From sequence record ON528746: a stretch of 64,000 nt of DNA. One strand, written 5' to 3'. The position numbers were made by a program, and so were the translations under genes. The number at the start of each line of letters is the position of its first letter. Within the stretch, counting starts at the first letter, position 1. The notes below the pieces were generated by a model, which had not been told where the DNA came from, searched no databases, and saw nothing but the letters and a program-made list of their open reading frames with translations. The DNA comes from Shigella phage ESh36. Shown here piece by piece: positions 4,287 through 44,512 of the stretch.

Positions 4287-4760
4287 TTATTTGAATGATT
4301 TGACGTACTGAATAGAGCCTTTGCTATTCACGAAAGCGATTTTACCATTTTTGTTATACATGGTAGCAGTACGCTGATAACCATAAGTTTGTTTACCAGA
4401 TTGATAACCAACTAATGCGAAATTATCTTCACCCATTTTATTCTGCTTCGCGCGGATACGTTCATGACCATGTGCCATAAGAACCTTAGCGTCGCCAGTT
4501 GCAATGGATCTACGAGTTTTTTCATCTTCAACTGTATTAACAAAGTCGTCAAATGAATCAAATTTAGCGTGAGATTTATTATACAGTTTTCCATCTACTG
4601 CATAATTATATCCCTGTACATCCATCTCAACTTCTGTACCATCATCCAATACAGCAGTGATTTTTTGACCTTTTTTAAATTTCAAAAGATCAGTAAAAGA
4701 TTCAGCGATAATTTGAGAATTAATAGCTGCTTCAGTGATAAATTCTTGATATGTTTTCAT
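4287..4760 (-). CDS. internal-protein-like head protein with capsid targeting sequence
   Basis: 157 aa; N-terminus MKTYQEFITEA is the T4 IP capsid-targeting leader (consensus MKTYQEFIAEA) with a downstream IAE prohead-protease-type site; mature part basic. Confidence 0.6.
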   Translation of the reverse strand: MKTYQEFITEAAINSQIIAESFTDLLKFKKGQKITAVLDDGTEVEMDVQGYNYAVDGKLYNKSHAKFDSFDDFVNTVEDEKTRRSIATGDAKVLMAHGHERIRAKQNKMGEDNFALVGYQSGKQTYGYQRTATMYNKNGKIAFVNSKGSIQYVKSFK

Positions 4761-4769
4761 GTGTTTCCT

Positions 4770-5186
4770 TTAAATGTAAATAGTTTTACCGTAGTATTTA
4801 TACCAGTGTGGCTTCATTAAAATTTTTTCATCGAGTCGTTGTTGACTCAACTTAATAGCTGATTTGCATGGATTATAATCATTTTTCCATTCTGCTGAAA
4901 TATCGCTGATGTCAGGAACTTCAGTATCTTTTATACTGAACCCACGTTTTAAGCATTCCGTTATAATGTCTGATTGACGCTTTCGCAAAAATTCTAACTT
5001 ATCGTAAAAGAACGTAACATGACCAGAACCTAAAATAAACTCGGAAGATATTTTAAAATCTTTAACCCGTTTACCATTTGCCACATGTTTACGAACTATA
5101 CCAAAAACACGTGGCAATTCACGGTATTCTGCGATTAAATGTTGATCAGCAAGTTCAGATACTAAAGTCAAATTAATACGAGTCAT
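4770..5186 (-). CDS. denV: endonuclease V (pyrimidine-dimer DNA glycosylase)
   Basis: 138 aa, [17 protein letters not shown]...WYKYYGK matches T4 DenV in sequence and length. Confidence 0.9.
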
Positions 5187-8703: not shown

Positions 8704-9039
8704 TTATTCTTCGTCTAGCTCGTCGATAAAGACGTTGATGGCCTCGATAACGGCATCATTGATAGCTAATAAAATAAAATCATCGTCAGTACCTTTAGAA
8801 GATTCTAAAGCATTGATATATGCTTGGTTGGCGAGTTCCCAAGCCTTTTTAAAATAAGGAGCTTCATCATCAGGACAAATATCCCGCACGCCTTCAAAGA
8901 TACGTTTGGCATAATCTAACACCCATTGTACAGGCATGTTTTGAGAACGTTCGTTAAACTCTTTAAAGTCCTTAGATTCAAAAAGCTCTTCAGGATAATT
9001 ATTTCTATTACAAAAAGCTTTACTAAAGTTACGTTTCAT
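8704..9039 (-). CDS. hypothetical protein (111 aa)
   Basis: ATG-initiated ORF in the e.x block. Confidence 0.5.
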   Translation of the reverse strand: MKRNFSKAFCNRNNYPEELFESKDFKEFNERSQNMPVQWVLDYAKRIFEGVRDICPDDEAPYFKKAWELANQAYINALESSKGTDDDFILLAINDAVIEAINVFIDELDEE

Positions 9040-9095: not shown

Positions 9096-9359
9096 TTATT
9101 TCATATTATTGAAATATTCTTCTGCGATTTCGTCGTTATCATGGTAAACTTTAGAAGACAGTTTAACATAACCTTCAGCAGTGAACATGTTAATCACAAC
9201 CTTTACAGTATACCACTGACCGTCTTCATTACCCATTACTGCATAAGTTTCAAACATCGGATGGTCAGGACCGATAACTTTAATATCATTCACTGTACGA
9301 CCAAAATCTTCTGAAACACATTTCATAAAGAAGTTGAACAGTTCACCGTAATTATCCAT
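9096..9359 (-). CDS. hypothetical protein (T4 e.8 position)
   Basis: Track ORF starts at TTG; start moved to ATG at 9359 (MDNYGELF) preceded by GGAGAA and lying just downstream of an early-promoter-like element. Confidence 0.45.
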   Translation of the reverse strand: MDNYGELFNFFMKCVSEDFGRTVNDIKVIGPDHPMFETYAVMGNEDGQWYTVKVVINMFTAEGYVKLSSKVYHDNDEIAEEYFNNMK

Positions 9360-9379
9360 TTCATTCTCCAAGTTGTTTT

Positions 9380-9460
9380 CTGTATCAGTAGTTGATAGTT
9401 GTATAGTACCATGGAAGAACAGAGATGTAAACAGTTTTGTGAAAAAATTTTTAGGGAATT
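9380..9460 (-). promoter_or_regulatory. early-promoter/stem-loop element (PeSL-like) upstream of the e.8-position ORF
   Basis: Minus strand: TTTCACAAAACTGTTTAC, 18-nt spacer, TACTAT; weaker inverted repeat. Confidence 0.45.
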
Positions 9461-9553
9461 CTAGGGCAGGGATGGGCAATTAAAGGATAGGATAATATAT
9501 TATAAAGGGTATAAACTAAATGATGCCTAGAGAGGCCCGGAAAGGCCTAGATA

Positions 9554-9580
9554 CCAAAAAGCCCTATCATTTAGATAGGG
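9554..9580 (-). terminator. rho-independent terminator after the IP-like gene
   Basis: Minus-strand hairpin CCCTATC-TAAAT-GATAGGG followed by CTTTTTGG. Confidence 0.55.
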
Positions 9581-9588
9581 ATTTAAAA

Positions 9589-10152
9589 TTATTTACCTAG
9601 TTTACTTATTATAGCTTCTGCAGCAGCTTTTAGCTTAGATGCAGTGTTAATACGATTTTTAATTTCAGTATACGCATCGCCAAGAACATCAAGGCTATCA
9701 GAATAAACACTTACACTATTGCGTTCGCTATTTGAAATAGAACCTTTAGTTTTGCGGTCAAAATCGGTGTACACGTCTTGAAGATCGCGGGCTGCCTTCT
9801 TTGCATCATCCAATGCATCAAGAGCTTTATTCAAAGCATTAACGTATTTTTTAGTGTCGAACATATTCTTAGAAATTTTAACAGGTGCGCGTTCAGGAGT
9901 AGCTAACACAGATTTAGGAACCTGAGCGCCAGATGCCAATTTCTTAGAAATTTTGAAAAATGCTTTATTGAATTTATTTTCTTGACTCATTGTAAAAGAA
10001 CTATTATCGATGTTGTACATTTCAATAGCTTTAGCTTTCCACTTAAGAAAATCGCCGCGGTCTTTTGGGTCCAATTGGAAGAATACTTTAGTAAGATCTG
10101 CTTCAGATGGTAATTTTGCTGCTTCGGTTAAAAATTCGGCATAGGTTTTCAT
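9589..10152 (-). CDS. internal-protein-like head protein with capsid targeting sequence
   Basis: 187 aa; N-terminus MKTYAEFLTEA (IP capsid-targeting leader); followed by a rho-independent terminator. Confidence 0.6.
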   Translation of the reverse strand: MKTYAEFLTEAAKLPSEADLTKVFFQLDPKDRGDFLKWKAKAIEMYNIDNSSFTMSQENKFNKAFFKISKKLASGAQVPKSVLATPERAPVKISKNMFDTKKYVNALNKALDALDDAKKAARDLQDVYTDFDRKTKGSISNSERNSVSVYSDSLDVLGDAYTEIKNRINTASKLKAAAEAIISKLGK

Positions 10153-10240
10153 TTAAAATCCTTGAAATAATTTATCGGTTGGTTATTAATTATTTATTAC
10201 TTTGTTACTATCCGTAACAGCGTTATCCGAGTGATTCAAA

Positions 10241-10270
10241 CTAAAAAGCCCCAACCTTTCGGTCGGGGCT
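10241..10270 (-). terminator. rho-independent terminator closing the tRNA/small-RNA transcription unit
   Basis: Minus-strand hairpin AGCCCCGACC-GAAA-GGTTGGGGCT followed by TTTTTAG. Confidence 0.6.
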
Positions 10271-10586: not shown

Positions 10587-10662
10587 TGGTCGAGGCAGTA
10601 GGGATCGAACCTACGACCCAGGACTTAGAAGGTCCTTGCTCTTCCTTCTGAGCTATGCCTCG
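10587..10662 (-). tRNA. tRNA-Arg (anticodon UCU)
   Basis: Manual fold of reverse complement: acceptor CGAGGCA/TGCCTCG, D-arm GCTC..GAGC, anticodon loop CUUCUAA, T-arm GTAGG-TTCGATC-CCTAC, CCA encoded. Confidence 0.8.
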
Positions 10663-10666
10663 TATT

Positions 10667-10741
10667 TGGCGGACGTGATAGGATTCGAACCTATAACCAA
10701 TCGCTTAACAGGCGATCGCTCTGCCATTGAGCTACACATCC
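10667..10741 (-). tRNA. tRNA-Asn (anticodon GUU)
   Basis: Acceptor GGATGTG/CACGTCC, perfect anticodon stem ATCGC/GCGAT, loop CUGUUAA, T-loop TTCGAAT, CCA encoded. Confidence 0.75.
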
Positions 10742-10745
10742 AAAT

Positions 10746-10832
10746 TGGTGGGGAGTGATGGAGTCGAACCACCCGAGTCGCAATGACAATGAATTTACAG
10801 TCCACACCGCTACCTCTACGGGATAACTCCCC
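10746..10832 (-). tRNA. tRNA-Tyr (anticodon GUA), long variable arm
   Basis: Acceptor GGGGAGT/ACTCCCC, anticodon loop CUGUAAA, long variable arm, T-arm GGTGG-TTCGACT-CCATC, CCA encoded; D-arm pairing irregular. Confidence 0.6.
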
Positions 10833-10845
10833 TTAATTCTTAATT

Positions 10846-10920
10846 TGGTGGCCCTGGGTGGAATTGAACCACCATCTGGCGATTATGAGTCGCTTGCTTG
10901 AACCTTCCAGCTACAGGGCC
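10846..10920 (-). tRNA. tRNA-Ile (anticodon CAU; formally Met-type anticodon, as for the T4 AUA-reading tRNA-Ile)
   Basis: Acceptor GGCCCTG/CAGGGCC, anticodon loop CUCAUAA, T-arm GGTGG-TTCAATT-CCACC, CCA encoded. Confidence 0.7.
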
Positions 10921-10921
10921 T

Positions 10922-10997
10922 TGGTGCTGATTGACGGAATCGAACCGCCGACCTTCTCATTACAAGTGAGTTGCTCTACCTACTGAGCTAAATCAGC
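10922..10997 (-). tRNA. tRNA-Thr (anticodon UGU)
   Basis: Acceptor GCTGATT/AATCAGC, D-arm AGCTCAGTAGGTAGAGC, anticodon loop CUUGUAA, T-loop TTCGATT, CCA encoded. Confidence 0.8.
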
Positions 10998-11002
10998 AAA
11001 AC

Positions 11003-11092
11003 TGGCGGAGGCGATAGGATTTGAACCTATGAGTCGCCGGAGCGACTGCCGGTTTTCAAGACCGGTGCATTAAACCACTCTGCCACGCCTCC
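11003..11092 (-). tRNA. tRNA-Ser (anticodon UGA)
   Basis: Reverse complement GGAGGCGTGGCAGAGTGG...CTTGAAA...TTCAAATCCTATCGCCTCCGCCA; type II tRNA with long variable arm. Confidence 0.85.
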
Positions 11093-11094
11093 AG

Positions 11095-11168
11095 TCTCCA
11101 TACAAGGATTTGAACCTTGGACCTCCTGATCCCAAATCAGGCGCTCTACCAAACTGAGCTACACGGAG
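11095..11168 (-). tRNA. tRNA-Pro (anticodon UGG)
   Basis: Acceptor CTCCGTG/TATGGAG, D-arm GCTCAGTTTGGTAGAGC, anticodon loop UUUGGGA, T-loop TTCAAAT; CCA not encoded (abuts tRNA-Ser). Confidence 0.8.
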
Positions 11169-11178
11169 TAAATTAAAT

Positions 11179-11252
<74 letters not shown>

Positions 11253-11257
11253 AAATT

Positions 11258-11344
11258 TGGTGCGAGAAGTGGGACTCGAACCCACAAGGAAATCATTCCG
11301 CAGCATTTTAAGTGCTGTGCCTTTACCAATTTGACCATTCTCGC
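11258..11344 (-). tRNA. tRNA-Leu (anticodon UAA)
   Basis: Reverse complement GCGAGAATGGTCAAATTGGTAAAGGCACAGCACTTAAAATGCTG...GGTTCGAGTCCCACTTCTCGCACCA; type II. Confidence 0.85.
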
Positions 11345-11345
11345 G

Positions 11346-11418
11346 CTGGGAATAAAGGACTCGAACCTTTGCATCTAGCAGTCAAAGTGCTATGCCTTAC
11401 CAACTTGGCTAATTCCCA
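11346..11418 (-). tRNA. tRNA-Gln (anticodon UUG)
   Basis: Reverse complement TGGGAATTAGCCAAGTTGGTAAGGCATAGCACTTTGACTGC...GGTTCGAGTCCTTTATTCCCA; CCA not encoded. Confidence 0.8.
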
Positions 11419-11487: not shown

Positions 11488-11513
11488 ATAATAACAAATA
11501 ATTCTTAAAGCAA
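11488..11513 (-). promoter_or_regulatory. candidate MotA-dependent middle promoter upstream of the tRNA cluster
   Basis: Minus-strand TTTGCTTTA (MotA-box-like) then a 12-nt spacer and TATTAT -10, about 60 nt upstream of tRNA-Gln. Confidence 0.3.
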
Positions 11514-12020
11514 ATTAAACATTTTAACTGTCGGCAAAACAATTTCTTCTTCGATATAAGCAAATTCTACATGTTCAACTACACGCAAGAAATCATATTC
11601 ATAGTATTCAGAAGCATGACCAAGAATATCAATGAGGCCTTCAGATATCTTATTACCATTCACAAAGAATAAGTCAAATACACGTTCTTCATCTTCTTCG
11701 GATTTATTACCAAGGTCAACTTCTATATCAAAAACTTTTTTAATGAATTCTGGATAAAGTTGGTCTGAGAACAGTCCTTCAACCAAATATTCATATATAA
11801 AAAGCTCCTGCTCGCTGAACAAACCATTACCACAATAACGGTCAGCTTTAGTGCTAGAATGACGACTCTTAAACTTCTTCAAGAGATATTTAAATTGCTG
11901 GAGCTCATGCTCTTCTACACCAAATAGTGTTTTGGTTTTATAGTTGTCACCATCATTTTCATAGGTAGTGACATCAATTACGTAGCCCTTAGGAATTGTG
12001 CTGCCTAAACGAATATACAT
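11505..12020 (-). CDS. hypothetical strongly acidic protein (171 aa)
   Basis: ATG-initiated ORF between the tRNA cluster and the ipI-position gene; D/E-rich, no catalytic motif. Confidence 0.5.
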   Translation of the reverse strand: MYIRLGSTIPKGYVIDVTTYENDGDNYKTKTLFGVEEHELQQFKYLLKKFKSRHSSTKADRYCGNGLFSEQELFIYEYLVEGLFSDQLYPEFIKKVFDIEVDLGNKSEEDEERVFDLFFVNGNKISEGLIDILGHASEYYEYDFLRVVEHVEFAYIEEEIVLPTVKMFNLL

Positions 12021-12902: not shown

Positions 12903-12963
12903 TAGGGTAATAGTATCACAACTAAAACCCTATGTAAACAACTTTGTGAAATTATTTTAAATC
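12903..12963 (-). promoter_or_regulatory. early-promoter/stem-loop element (PeSL-like) upstream of the small membrane ORF
   Basis: 32-bp block ATGTAAACAACTTTGTGAAATTATTTTAAATC identical to the copy at 13262-13293; inverted repeat ATAGGGT/ACCCTAT encloses the -10 TACTAT; GTTTAC -35 at an 18-nt spacing. Confidence 0.55.
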
Positions 12964-13209
12964 TTCTAATCGTTTCTTCATCTTAGAACCATTTTTAGCA
13001 ATTTCTCCTGCATCGGAGCATAATGCTAAAAGCGCTTTAACTTTAGTTTGATCTCCTTTAAAAGACGAAGGATCGACTGCAGCAGCAAGTTCTTTAATAC
13101 GAGAGAAAAGACGCTCAGCTTCAGCTAAAGCCATTCCAAGCTTTACTTCCATACCGTGGGAAGATTCAATGATAGTAGTTTTTGTAGCAAACTCTTTGAA
13201 AGTTTTCAT
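12952..13209 (-). CDS. internal-protein-like small head protein at the T4 ipI position
   Basis: 85 aa; N-terminus MKTFKEFATK resembles the IP capsid-targeting leader, with IIE site nearby; directly downstream of 57B as ipI is in T4. Confidence 0.5.
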   Translation of the reverse strand: MKTFKEFATKTTIIESSHGMEVKLGMALAEAERLFSRIKELAAAVDPSSFKGDQTKVKALLALCSDAGEIAKNGSKMKKRLEDLK

Positions 13210-42609: not shown

Positions 42610-43034
42610 TGCTTCTGATCCCTGAAACTCATGAATTAGTTCTCGAGAATGTCGAAGCACTTATTCCTGAAGCACAGGGTCGCTTTGACGAATTGTCTTC
42701 TGCTTTAAATAAAGACGATATAAATACAATTGTCGAGAATATGCTTGATGATGAAACTGATTTAGCGATTGCATTAGCTTCTATTAATGAAGATATGCCG
42801 CTAAATGAATTCATCGTTAAACATGTTTCTGCTCGTGGTGAAATTACACGTACTAAAGACCGCAAGACGCGTGAACGTAATGCATTTCAAACCACCGGGC
42901 TGTCTAAAGCAAAACGTAGACAAATTGCTCGCAAAGCTACCAAAACGAAGATTGCCAACCCAGCAGGTCAATCTCGTGCTCAGCGTAAGCGTAAAAAAGC
43001 TCTTAAACGCCGTAAAGCATTAGGATTAAGCTAA
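42609..43034 (+). CDS. 68: prohead core protein gp68
   Basis: 141 aa between 67 and 21. Confidence 0.8.
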
Positions 43035-43672
43035 TGAATGAACCCCAATTACTAATTGAAACTTGGGGTCAACCTGGCGAAATTATTGATGGTGTGCCAA
43101 TGCTTGAATCTCATGATGGAAAAGACCTCGGTTTAAAACCTGGTTTATACATCGAAGGAATATTCATGCAAGCGGAAGTCGTCAATAGAAATAAACGTCT
43201 TTATCCAAAACGCATATTAGAAAAAGCGGTAAAAGACTATATCAATGAGCAAGTTTTAACTAAACAAGCTCTCGGAGAATTAAATCATCCTCCACGCGCT
43301 AATGTTGACCCGATGCAAGCCGCTATCATTATAGAAGATATGTGGTGGAAAGGAAATGACGTATACGGACGAGCTCGTGTTATTGAAGGTGACCATGGTC
43401 CTGGAGATAAATTAGCAGCTAATATTCGTGCCGGATGGATTCCAGGAGTTTCTTCTCGTGGATTAGGTTCATTGACTGACACAAATAAAGGTTATCGTAT
43501 CGTAAACGAAGGATTCAAATTAACTGTAGGTGTTGATGCAGTATGGGGTCCAAGTGCTCCAGATGCATGGGTAACTCCTAAGGAAATTACCGAATCACAG
43601 ACGGCGGAAGCCGATACAAGTGCCGATGACGCCTATATGGCTCTCGCAGAGGCCATGAAAAAAGCGTTATAA
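43034..43672 (+). CDS. 21: prohead core scaffold protein and protease gp21
   Basis: 212 aa, T4 gp21 length and position. Confidence 0.9.
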   Translation: MNEPQLLIETWGQPGEIIDGVPMLESHDGKDLGLKPGLYIEGIFMQAEVVNRNKRLYPKRILEKAVKDYINEQVLTKQALGELNHPPRANVDPMQAAIIIEDMWWKGNDVYGRARVIEGDHGPGDKLAANIRAGWIPGVSSRGLGSLTDTNKGYRIVNEGFKLTVGVDAVWGPSAPDAWVTPKEITESQTAEADTSADDAYMALAEAMKKAL

Positions 43673-43702: not shown

Positions 43703-44512
43703 ATGCTTAAAGAACAACTGATTGCCGAAGCGCAGAAAATTGATGCTTCCGTTGCTCTTGATAGTATTTTCGAATCAGTTAATATTTCTCCGGAAGCAAA
43801 AGAAACTTTCGGCACTGTATTCGAAGCTACCGTCAAGCAGCACGCCGTTAAATTAGCTGAATCTCATATCGCTAAAATTGCTGAAAAAGCAGAAGAAGAA
43901 GTAGAAAAAAATAAAGAAGAAGCCGAAGAAAAAGCTGAGAAGAAAATTGCTGAGCAAGCTTCTAAATTCATCGACCATCTTGCAAAAGAATGGCTCGCTG
44001 AAAATAAATTAGCAGTTGATAAAGGCATCAAAGCCGAACTGTTTGAATCCATGCTAGGTGGATTAAAAGAGCTCTTTGTTGAACACAACGTTGTTGTTCC
44101 AGAAGAATCAGTTGATGTTGTAGCTGAAATGGAAGAAGAGCTGCAAGAACATAAAGAAGAATCAGCTCGTCTGTTCGAAGAACTCAATAAGCGTGACGCA
44201 TATATCAATTATGTGCAGCGTGAAGTGGCATTGAGCGAAAGTACTAAAGATCTGACTGAGTCTCAAAAAGAAAAAGTCTCTGCTCTGGTCGAAGGTATGG
44301 ATTATTCAGATGCATTCTCAAGTAAATTGAGTGCAATCGTAGAAATGGTGAAGAAATCTAATAAAGATGAAAGCACTATTACTGAGAGTATAAATACTCC
44401 TGATACTGAAGCAGCCGGACTGAATTTCGTCACTGAAGCTGTAGAAGATAAATCTGCACCTGGTGCAGAAGATATTGTAAGTGTATATGCGAAAGTCGCA
44501 TCTCGTTTCTAA
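43703..44512 (+). CDS. 22: prohead core scaffold protein gp22
   Basis: 269 aa acidic coiled-coil protein. Confidence 0.9.
   Translation: MLKEQLIAEAQKIDASVALDSIFESVNISPEAKETFGTVFEATVKQHAVKLAESHIAKIAEKAEEEVEKNKEEAEEKAEKKIAEQASKFIDHLAKEWLAENKLAVDKGIKAELFESMLGGLKELFVEHNVVVPEESVDVVAEMEEELQEHKEESARLFEELNKRDAYINYVQREVALSESTKDLTESQKEKVSALVEGMDYSDAFSSKLSAIVEMVKKSNKDESTITESINTPDTEAAGLNFVTEAVEDKSAPGAEDIVSVYAKVASRF

Follow-up and report, generated by a model that had tools for sequence, protein, structure and literature searches.

The DNA analyzed here is a stretch of 64,000 nucleotides (hereafter the window) from Shigella phage ESh36 (sequence record ON528746) and corresponds to a Tequatrovirus (T4-like) segment. 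Its minus strand carries, in this order, gene 1, 57A, 57B, the gene at the ipI position, the trna.x open reading frames (ORFs), ten tRNA genes, a stretch homologous to rnaD/rnaC, an ORF of 187 amino acids (aa), e.8, e.7, e.6, e.5 and, farther on, e and denV. The 187-aa ORF is the subject of this work. Ahead of it on this strand come the ten tRNA genes (11418..10587) and the stretch homologous to rnaD/rnaC, and e.8 follows it, the immediate neighbors of its locus being rnaC/tRNA-Arg on one side and e.8 on the other. A preliminary description of the window had placed it at 10152..9589, between e.8 and the tRNA cluster, with an MKTYAEFLTEA start and a terminator of its own; coordinates and description proved exact, and an intrinsic terminator (9580..9562 plus a T run) was found. 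The locus is made up of the following features (a slash within a sequence marks a cut or a junction).

10270..10243, minus strand: terminator hairpin and T run ending the tRNA/rnaD/rnaC transcription unit, AGCCCCGACCGAAAGGTTGGGGCTTTTT; upstream cassette boundary
10242..9556, minus strand: segment missing from T4 (687 bp), comprising the 5' leader region, the ORF and its own terminator, delimited by blastn against T4 and by the junction sequences
10198..10191, minus strand: AATAAATA, candidate late-promoter variant with a single mismatch to TATAAATA, its end 38 nt ahead of the ATG
10163..10159, minus strand: Shine-Dalgarno sequence AAGGA, 6 nt ahead of the ATG
10152..9589 (stop codon included), minus strand: 187-aa ORF, member of the family phrog_2280, ATG start, translation MKTYAEFLTEAAKLPSEADLTK...
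10152..10123, minus strand: codons 1 to 10, MKTYAEFLTE, predicted capsid-targeting sequence (CTS) and gp21 cleavage motif LTE/A
9580..9562 (hairpin plus T run; 9556..9580 overall), minus strand: intrinsic terminator of the 187-aa gene, CCCTATCTAAATGATAGGG then CTTTTT; downstream cassette boundary

Pairwise comparison of alleles gave synonymous-to-nonsynonymous codon differences of 13:4, 6:2, and 14:2, by which measure the gene is coding and under purifying selection. On the opposite strand there are only short ORFs (≤44 aa), and a foreign origin was ruled out by the GC content of the gene (0.358), which matches that of the window (0.360). Comparison of the protein by tblastn recovered 164 phage records, all of them Tequatrovirus-like and 95 to 100% identical with the exception of one linker-deletion variant, while the match to phrog_2280 (annotated as "unknown function") extended over residues 1 to 181 and profile positions 1 to 178 of 178 (E value of 2e-53). 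A spurious ORF in a noncoding spacer between the tRNA operon and e.8 could be argued for only from the "hypothetical protein" labels, and its probability is negligible in view of these records with their synonymous excess, the full-length profile match, the distant homologues in other genera (see below), the ribosome-binding site, promoter and terminator in place, and the quality of the AlphaFold model over the C-terminal domain (predicted local distance difference test [pLDDT] of ~90).

The N terminus of the product indicates that it is probably a previously unrecognized T4-type internal protein (Ip). According to work of the Black laboratory, as summarized in PMC9026906, the first 10 residues of IPIII are enough for foreign proteins to be packaged, and the same summary assigns targeting to residues 4 and 7 of this leader and processing to residues 8 and 10. 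All four mapped positions are kept in the 187-aa protein, Y4 and F7 for targeting and L8 and E10 for cleavage; L8 corresponds to Ile in IPIII, the protease motif being L/I-x-E. Furthermore, LTE/A (residues 8 to 10, then Ala) is the sole [LIV]-x-E site across the whole protein. Six other Ip leaders (T4 IPI, IPII, and IPIII plus Ip4, Ip5, and Ip6) were used to build a position matrix, on which the 187-aa ORF scored 20.3 bits, compared to 5.4 bits for the next window candidate not used in training, over a background of 438 ATG-initiated candidates in the window with a mean of -19.2 (standard deviation, 6.7). A chance leader match was ruled out by this difference, and the internal protein leader proposed in the preliminary description, MKTYAEFLTE/A, is real as judged by its score and its retained functional residues.

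An alignment to T4 IPIII and IPII had also been proposed. By BLASTP, the aligned part was restricted to residues 1 to 12 (IPIII) and 1 to 11 (IPII), with 8 identities each, and no similarity to either protein was detected past residue 11 or 12. The leader is shared, with 8 of 10 residues identical to those of IPIII (MKTYAEFLTE versus MKTYQEFIAE) and the same cleavage geometry, but nothing related follows it, and a homologue of IPIII or IPII was discarded on these grounds. Nor was there any similarity to the mature domains of IPI, IPII, IPIII, Ip4, Ip5, or Ip6, from which the protein is separated both as a cluster and as a PHROG.

The window also encodes the two head proteins expected to deal with such a leader.

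43034..43669, plus strand: gene 21, prohead protease, 99.5% identical to T4 gp21; expected leader-removing enzyme
43703..44509, plus strand: gene 22, scaffolding core protein, 98.5% identical to T4 gp22; core taking up CTS-bearing proteins

The first ten residues of the 187-aa protein would act as a CTS directing it to the gp22 scaffolding core of the prohead, gp21 would cut after Glu10 (LTE/A) and leave a basic protein of 19.6 kDa inside the head, and this mature form would be injected along with the phage DNA. Packaging, cleavage, and injection all appear quite probable for this protein. Proteomic data are available for a 158-aa paralogue (g140) located at the same position in phage fD1 (see below). 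In liquid chromatography-tandem mass spectrometry of fD1 virions, g140 was flagged as particle-associated (PPAP), likewise the Ip4 homologue g129, while the neighboring e.8 (g139) was not. If cut after E10, fD1 g140 would have the predicted new N terminus AVLNEASSTEIQAVAK. The papers on fPS-90 and Sfk20 contain no virion mass spectrometry.

T4 ipII, T4 ipIII, and Ip4 are near-identical at the DNA level between the ribosome-binding site and the end of the leader, AAAGGAAACA(T/C)ATGAAAACATATCAAGAATTTAT, and a hairpin-embedded early-type promoter (GTTTAC...) is located upstream of T4 ipII and ipIII. From this identity, leader and translation start seem to move together as a DNA module among ipII, ipIII, and Ip4, though not among phrog_2280 genes. 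Since leader DNA can travel with the ribosome-binding site, and since we only infer the packaging of the 187-aa protein, its product might be a late cytoplasmic protein whose leader resemblance arose incidentally, through recombination or through a translation-initiation region in common with neighboring accessory genes. However, the upstream region of the 187-aa gene and its leader codons (ACC TAT GCC GAA TTT TTA ACC GAA, versus ACA TAT CAA GAA TTT ATT GCC GAA in other ip genes) are unlike those of the other ip genes, with the amino acids kept. The conserved residues F7, L/I8, and E10 are written with different codons in different genera, which indicates selection on the peptide. With all four mapped positions retained and the 158-aa paralogue detected in fD1 virions (albeit in a data set of low specificity), a cytoplasmic protein is very unlikely.

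Because the terminator of the tRNA operon lies directly upstream, the 187-aa gene needs its own promoter. The sequence AATAAATA occurs only eight times in the 64-kb window, counting both strands, and one of these sits ahead of the 187-aa ORF. A(-13), the deviation that AATAAATA carries, is the commonest natural one among T4 late promoters, found at 9 of 50 sites (Geiduschek and Kassavetis, PMC2988020). At the matching position, TATAAATA precedes the Mosigvirus and Karamvirus orthologues and also the 158-aa paralogue, and GATAAATA is found in Winklervirus CHI14, in the contig of a distant relative (P0013, see below), and in Shigella phage CT01. No early sigma-70 promoter of the GTTTAC...TATAAT type was evident ahead of the 187-aa ORF. 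Late expression of the gene from this candidate gp55-type promoter variant is likely.

The 158-aa paralogue and the Mosigvirus and Karamvirus orthologues matched phrog_2280 as well, while IPII, IPIII, Ip4, and Ip5 belong to PHROGs annotated as internal virion or head proteins. A search of 5.8 billion proteins gave no relatives more distant than those of the tblastn set. Using phmmer with the single sequence against 1.8 billion representatives, we recovered one informative distant relative, P0013 (204 aa, MITFNEFLNES..., 31% identity, E value of 2.6e-6), which provided a bridge to the wider family: tblastn from P0013 retrieved 350 records, from phages of Escherichia, Klebsiella, Enterobacter, Serratia, Kosakonia, and Erwinia. 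Homologues occupy the same position, after the tRNA/rnaC block and before e.6/e.5, in Mosigvirus S143_2, Karamvirus KMB19, and Winklervirus CHI14, where they start with MYTFNEFLAE, MLNFKEFIAE, and MLKFKEF..ISEA, respectively; the leaders of other relatives read MITFNEFLNE and MKSYTQFLNE. In an alignment of 21 sequences, F7 was invariant and M1, E6, L8, and E10 were nearly so, with an overall identity to the window protein of 21 to 27%. The leader is the best-conserved part of the family, the full-length identity of its members amounting to no more than 22 to 29%. Judged by synteny, phrog_2280 is an old family whose place just past the rnaC terminator has been kept in Tequatrovirus, Mosigvirus, Karamvirus, and Winklervirus. 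A recent lineage-specific insertion was ruled out by this cross-genus synteny and by the rarity of the empty site described below.

The copy in RB69 (Mosigvirus) is apparently split into ORF148c and ORF149c. RB69ORF149c (BFVD Q7Y4Z6, 146 aa) shares 88% identity with the 187-aa type of Tequatrovirus and is apparently truncated, which suggests intergenus exchange followed by decay, as with the near-identical IPI of RB69. The RB14 record (L010:9100-9663) remarks on the similarity of its gene to RB69ORF148c and 149c without calling it an Ip. No source names any member of the phrog_2280 family, and RB69ORF148c, RB69ORF149c, ncORF136c, and phrog_2280 are not mentioned in the searchable literature, the RB69 paper being silent on ORF148c and ORF149c.

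The preliminary description had suspected that T4 has no ip gene at this position, and there is none: in T4 (NC_000866), 284 bp without an ORF separate e.8 (70360-70623) from rnaC (70908-71046). T4 aligns to both flanks and lacks the segment 10242..9556 of the window, homology ending after ...GGGGCTTTTT, and the breaks fall at two terminator T runs. The junction in T4 reads ...GGTTGGGGCTTTTT/GGTATCTAAGCC..., and those in the window read ...GGTTGGGGCTTTTT/AGTTTGAATC...(ORF)...GATAGGGCTTTTT/GGTATCTAGGCC..., with a 9-bp repeat, GGGCTTTTT, at both junctions of the 187 unit. Alignment of the locus showed no remnant of the 187-aa gene in T4. JK08 and many close relatives have an extra ORF between rnaC and the 187-aa gene, namely, the paralogue already mentioned.

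L002:2479-2952 and L005:7943-8416 (coordinates in the loci of relatives), minus strand: 158-aa paralogue, leader MKSYTQFLNE/A

By profile comparison, the 158-aa and 187-aa families are full-length paralogues (probability of 96%, E value of 2.6e-9), with the same PHROG, locus, leader type, and two-domain layout. The 158-aa protein of fD1 (g140) and JK08 is, however, only ~25% identical to the 187-aa protein and 30 residues shorter, and its gene has a perfect TATAAATA ahead and a 34-bp duplicate of the rnaC terminator behind, in contrast to the one-mismatch promoter and distinct terminator of the 187-aa gene. In fD1, the 158-aa gene is alone, between two terminator copies. Recombining these two copies gives exactly the empty site of T4, and recombining both copies in a genome of the JK08 type gives exactly the arrangement of the window. 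The locus is found in four states (empty, 158, 187, and 158 plus 187). Both genes are adjacent in ~128 records, the 187-aa gene is present in 164, the 158-aa type at any identity in 512, and the uninterrupted T4-type junction in 63 of 466 (several of them T4 itself), all of these being approximate counts from junction-specific searches, influenced by redundant deposits and by the rules for joining BLAST pieces. As read from the junctions, the locus states interconvert through recombination between repeated terminator sequences. T4 most likely lost the 187-aa gene in this way, as the empty site is the minority state.

These data also bear on the idea, put forward in the preliminary description, that ip genes move as independent cassettes. 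A promoter-ORF-terminator unit, the terminator repeats, the four alleles, and independent assortment among loci (see below) all agree with it, but the gene is no new arrival, belonging instead to an old syntenic family. A comparable organization is known from the PeSL cassettes (Arbiol et al. 2010, PMC2839356), in which a lone accessory ORF with its own promoter and stem-loop terminator is bounded by repeated stem-loops of the GGGG...CCCC type, and recombination between these repeats accounts for presence/absence alleles. The PeSL promoter is, however, a strong one of the early sigma-70 type, located inside the repeated motif, rather than of the late (gp55) type, and the repeats there are composites of ~100 bp, whereas the terminator repeats at the 187-aa locus have 9 to 34 bp of identity.

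As had been stated in the preliminary description, the window contains three leader-bearing genes at three loci.

13209..12952, minus strand: Ip5, 85 aa, MKTFKEFATK, phrog_3499, ipI locus (the gene at the ipI position is not IPI)
10152..9589, minus strand: the 187-aa gene, rnaC-e.8 locus
4760..4287, minus strand: Ip4, 157 aa, MKTYQEFITE/A, phrog_3155, e/denV locus, perfect TATAAATA at 4802

The names Ip4, Ip5, and Ip6 were taken from the RB14 and JK08 annotations; the series in T-even phages is credited to Repoila et al. (1994), as cited in PMC12373910 and PMC9026906. Ip4 is found directly after denV (order e-denV-Ip4), with its perfect late promoter inside the 3' end of denV, and ipIII and ipII, which in T4 are located between e and denV, are missing from the window. 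The content of the three loci in six phages was as follows.

T4: ipI locus, IPI; rnaC-e.8, none; e locus, IPIII and IPII
RB14: ipI locus, Ip5 and IPI; rnaC-e.8, 187; e locus, Ip4
T4_ev151: ipI locus, Ip6; rnaC-e.8, 187; e locus, Ip4
JK08: ipI locus, Ip5 and Ip6; rnaC-e.8, 158 and 187; e locus, none
fD1: ipI locus, IPI-like; rnaC-e.8, 158; e locus, Ip4
This window: ipI locus, Ip5; rnaC-e.8, 187; e locus, Ip4

Over these phages, Ip content assorts independently among the three loci. The literature recognizes two Ip loci (PMC12373910), and the 187-aa gene, at rnaC-e.8, falls outside both of them (57B-trna.4 and e-vs.8); the position of an Ip locus is descriptive of known genes and does not define a mechanism. 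T4 IPI/IPI* (a GmrS-GmrD inhibitor) and Ip4, Ip5, and Ip6 are, like the product of the 187-aa gene, leader-bearing, small, basic, and polymorphic, with their own regulatory signals. They differ in being located in the two recognized loci and annotated as internal proteins (phrog_3499 and phrog_3155), whereas the 187-aa gene is unnamed and sits in another place. By comparison of these genomes, rnaC-e.8 is a third Ip locus. Most Tequatrovirus records have it filled, and its position is maintained in at least three further genera.

The surroundings of the three loci vary as well. The tRNA cluster (11418..10587, minus strand) contains Arg, Asn, Tyr, Met-CAT, Thr, Ser, Pro, Gly, Leu, and Gln tRNAs and lacks the segB homing endonuclease, while its T4 counterpart has only eight tRNAs and an insertion of segB behind tRNA-Arg; in RB14, the tRNA with the CAT anticodon is annotated as the T4 tRNA-Ile type. 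Between trna.2 and tRNA-Gln there is a 171-aa ORF (12020..11505, minus strand), at a point where T4 has a short gap and fD1 an ORF of the same size (g142). On the other side, e.8 has its true start at ~9359 and its stop at 9096: the T4-size gene (87 aa, 264 nt) begins at the ATG of MDNYGELF, and the extension to a TTG at 9479 in the ORF list (9096-9479, minus strand, 127 aa) is an artifact overlapping the shared intergenic region. The e.7 position (9039..8704, minus strand) is variable, with an e.7 of T4 size (111 aa) in the window, an unrelated 58-aa ORF in RB14 and fD1, and nothing annotated in JK08 and T4_ev151. In RB14 (L010, 3658-5401), e, Ip4, and vs.8 follow one another with no denV annotated between them, differently from T4, the window, fD1, and JK08.

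The predicted mature product of the 187-aa gene (177 aa, 19.6 kDa, isoelectric point [pI] of 9.54, 32 K+R, and 23 D+E) is close in size, pI, and charge to IPIII* (183 aa, 20.4 kDa, pI of 9.65, 33 K+R, and 23 D+E), derived from the 193-aa IPIII of T4, and both are dispensable and variably present. They differ in PHROG (2280 versus 5341) and locus (rnaC-e.8 versus e-denV), and for IPIII the target has been identified as the GmrSD of ECOR17 (PMC12373910). In an AlphaFold model based on the 21-sequence alignment (mean pLDDT of 77.5), the leader is disordered, residues 17 to 73 form a small helical N-domain, residues 74 to 100 a disordered linker that is Pro/Lys-rich in relatives, and residues 101 to 186 a three-helix bundle. 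The mature protein would then combine a small helical N-domain, a flexible linker, and a C-terminal helical bundle. An earlier model from a shallow alignment was poor (pLDDT of 59), and its Foldseek search against PDB was empty. Structure searches detected no enzymatic domain in the 187-aa protein and no similarity of the model to solved inhibitors, and nothing in Pfam or NCBIfam was above threshold; weak matches to Cytochrome b562 and ALIX were dismissed because they reflect helical bundles only.

Natural alleles provide further information on this layout. In the allele of Shigella phage CT01 (L004:2501-2989), 26 alignment columns (~25 residues) are deleted in frame, with loss of the interdomain linker at about residues 67 to 91, and therefore the linker is dispensable and the protein is two-domain. 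Split or truncated alleles, with fragments of 86 and 116 aa, appear in vB_EcoM_OE5505, P0010, and P0012, and two ORFs are annotated in the OE5505 record. It follows that the gene can be dispensed with and that it sometimes decays or becomes a pseudogene.

The main alternative is that the protein is packaged via its leader as a bulk basic protein of the core or a DNA counterion, replacing the missing mass of IPIII and IPII and with no specific host target. Its size, pI, and charged-residue counts, near-identical to those of IPIII*, fit this well, as does the absence of ipIII and ipII from this phage and from four other non-T4 relatives examined. The fold, a plain bundle of helices plus an extended basic linker that is disordered, with no enzyme-like or binding fold detected, points in the same direction, and conservation of family and position across genera is atypical of arms-race genes. 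However, T4 is fully viable without the whole family, 63 records share its empty site, and truncated alleles occur. Moreover, IPIII and IPII were themselves long held to be bulk basic proteins and proved to be specific GmrSD inhibitors (PMC12373910). We consider a purely bulk role unlikely; head filling as such is compatible with an anti-defense role.

Several observations weigh against assigning the 187-aa gene to the injected internal proteins. The fD1 particle list that includes g140 is of low specificity, since it also contains nonstructural proteins (DenV, lysozyme e, and NudE) and 672 host proteins copurified, and this proteomic support covers only the paralogue, the 187-aa protein being known from its sequence. 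Every database entry for it carries the label "hypothetical," and the RB14 record names Ip4 and Ip5 yet gives this gene no Ip name. Its candidate late promoter, recognized by sequence, is a one-mismatch variant. Truncated or split alleles exist (OE5505, RB69ORF149c, P0010, and P0012), and structure searches returned only generic helical bundles or members of the family, with no indication of a target.

As to function, the known internal proteins offer an analogy. Inhibition of GmrSD type IV restriction enzymes was shown for Ip1, Ip2, and Ip3, which have one distinct enzyme each as their target and only the leader in common, and the authors expected the same role for other genes of "the two Ip loci" (Silas et al. 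2025, PMC12373910). Another leader-bearing protein, Bas37_0260, inhibits McrBC (HIDEN-SEQ preprint, 10.1101/2025.11.20.689424). It resembles the 187-aa protein in having no homology to IPI, IPII, or IPIII past the signal and was shown genetically to be an inhibitor of the injected type; it is encoded in the ipI locus, and we set it beside phrog_2280 by its description only. After injection, the 187-aa protein would most probably neutralize a host nuclease-type defense directed against modified phage DNA, before any phage gene is expressed, with a GmrSD/BrxU-like or a McrBC-like type IV restriction enzyme as candidate targets by analogy with Ip1, Ip2, Ip3, and Bas37_0260. This anti-defense role is a tentative proposal, to which we give a little less than an even chance. 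At the DNA level, the rnaC-e.8 locus would gain and lose promoter-ORF-terminator units via recombination of terminator repeats, and T4 would have lost all of them.

A broader reading, which we regard as doubtful, is that phrog_2280 is the ancestral and most widely conserved Ip family of the Tevenvirinae, missed for decades owing to the deletion in T4, and that the 158- and 187-aa paralogues target defenses other than GmrSD (for instance, a non-type-IV system acting at DNA entry) or have a conserved role in ejection or early takeover. The latter was considered because of the conservation and synteny across genera. Such positional conservation is unusual for an arms-race gene and may favor leaving room for a bulk or conserved entry function.

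To a T4 specialist the 187-aa gene would be unsurprising in principle, and it is unannotated, common, and directly testable. Since three T4 internal proteins inhibit GmrSD and a fourth leader protein blocks McrBC, as seen in the 2025 work, genes bearing this leader offer a ready catalogue of injected anti-defense proteins. The 187-aa and 158-aa proteins are two candidate host range determinants in therapeutic T4-like phages, and MKTYAEFLTE adds a natural CTS variant for the engineering of protein delivery. The rnaC-e.8 locus is, in addition, a clean example of gain and loss of accessory genes through terminator recombination, and it illustrates how a family common among the relatives of T4 can be overlooked when T4 serves as the reference.

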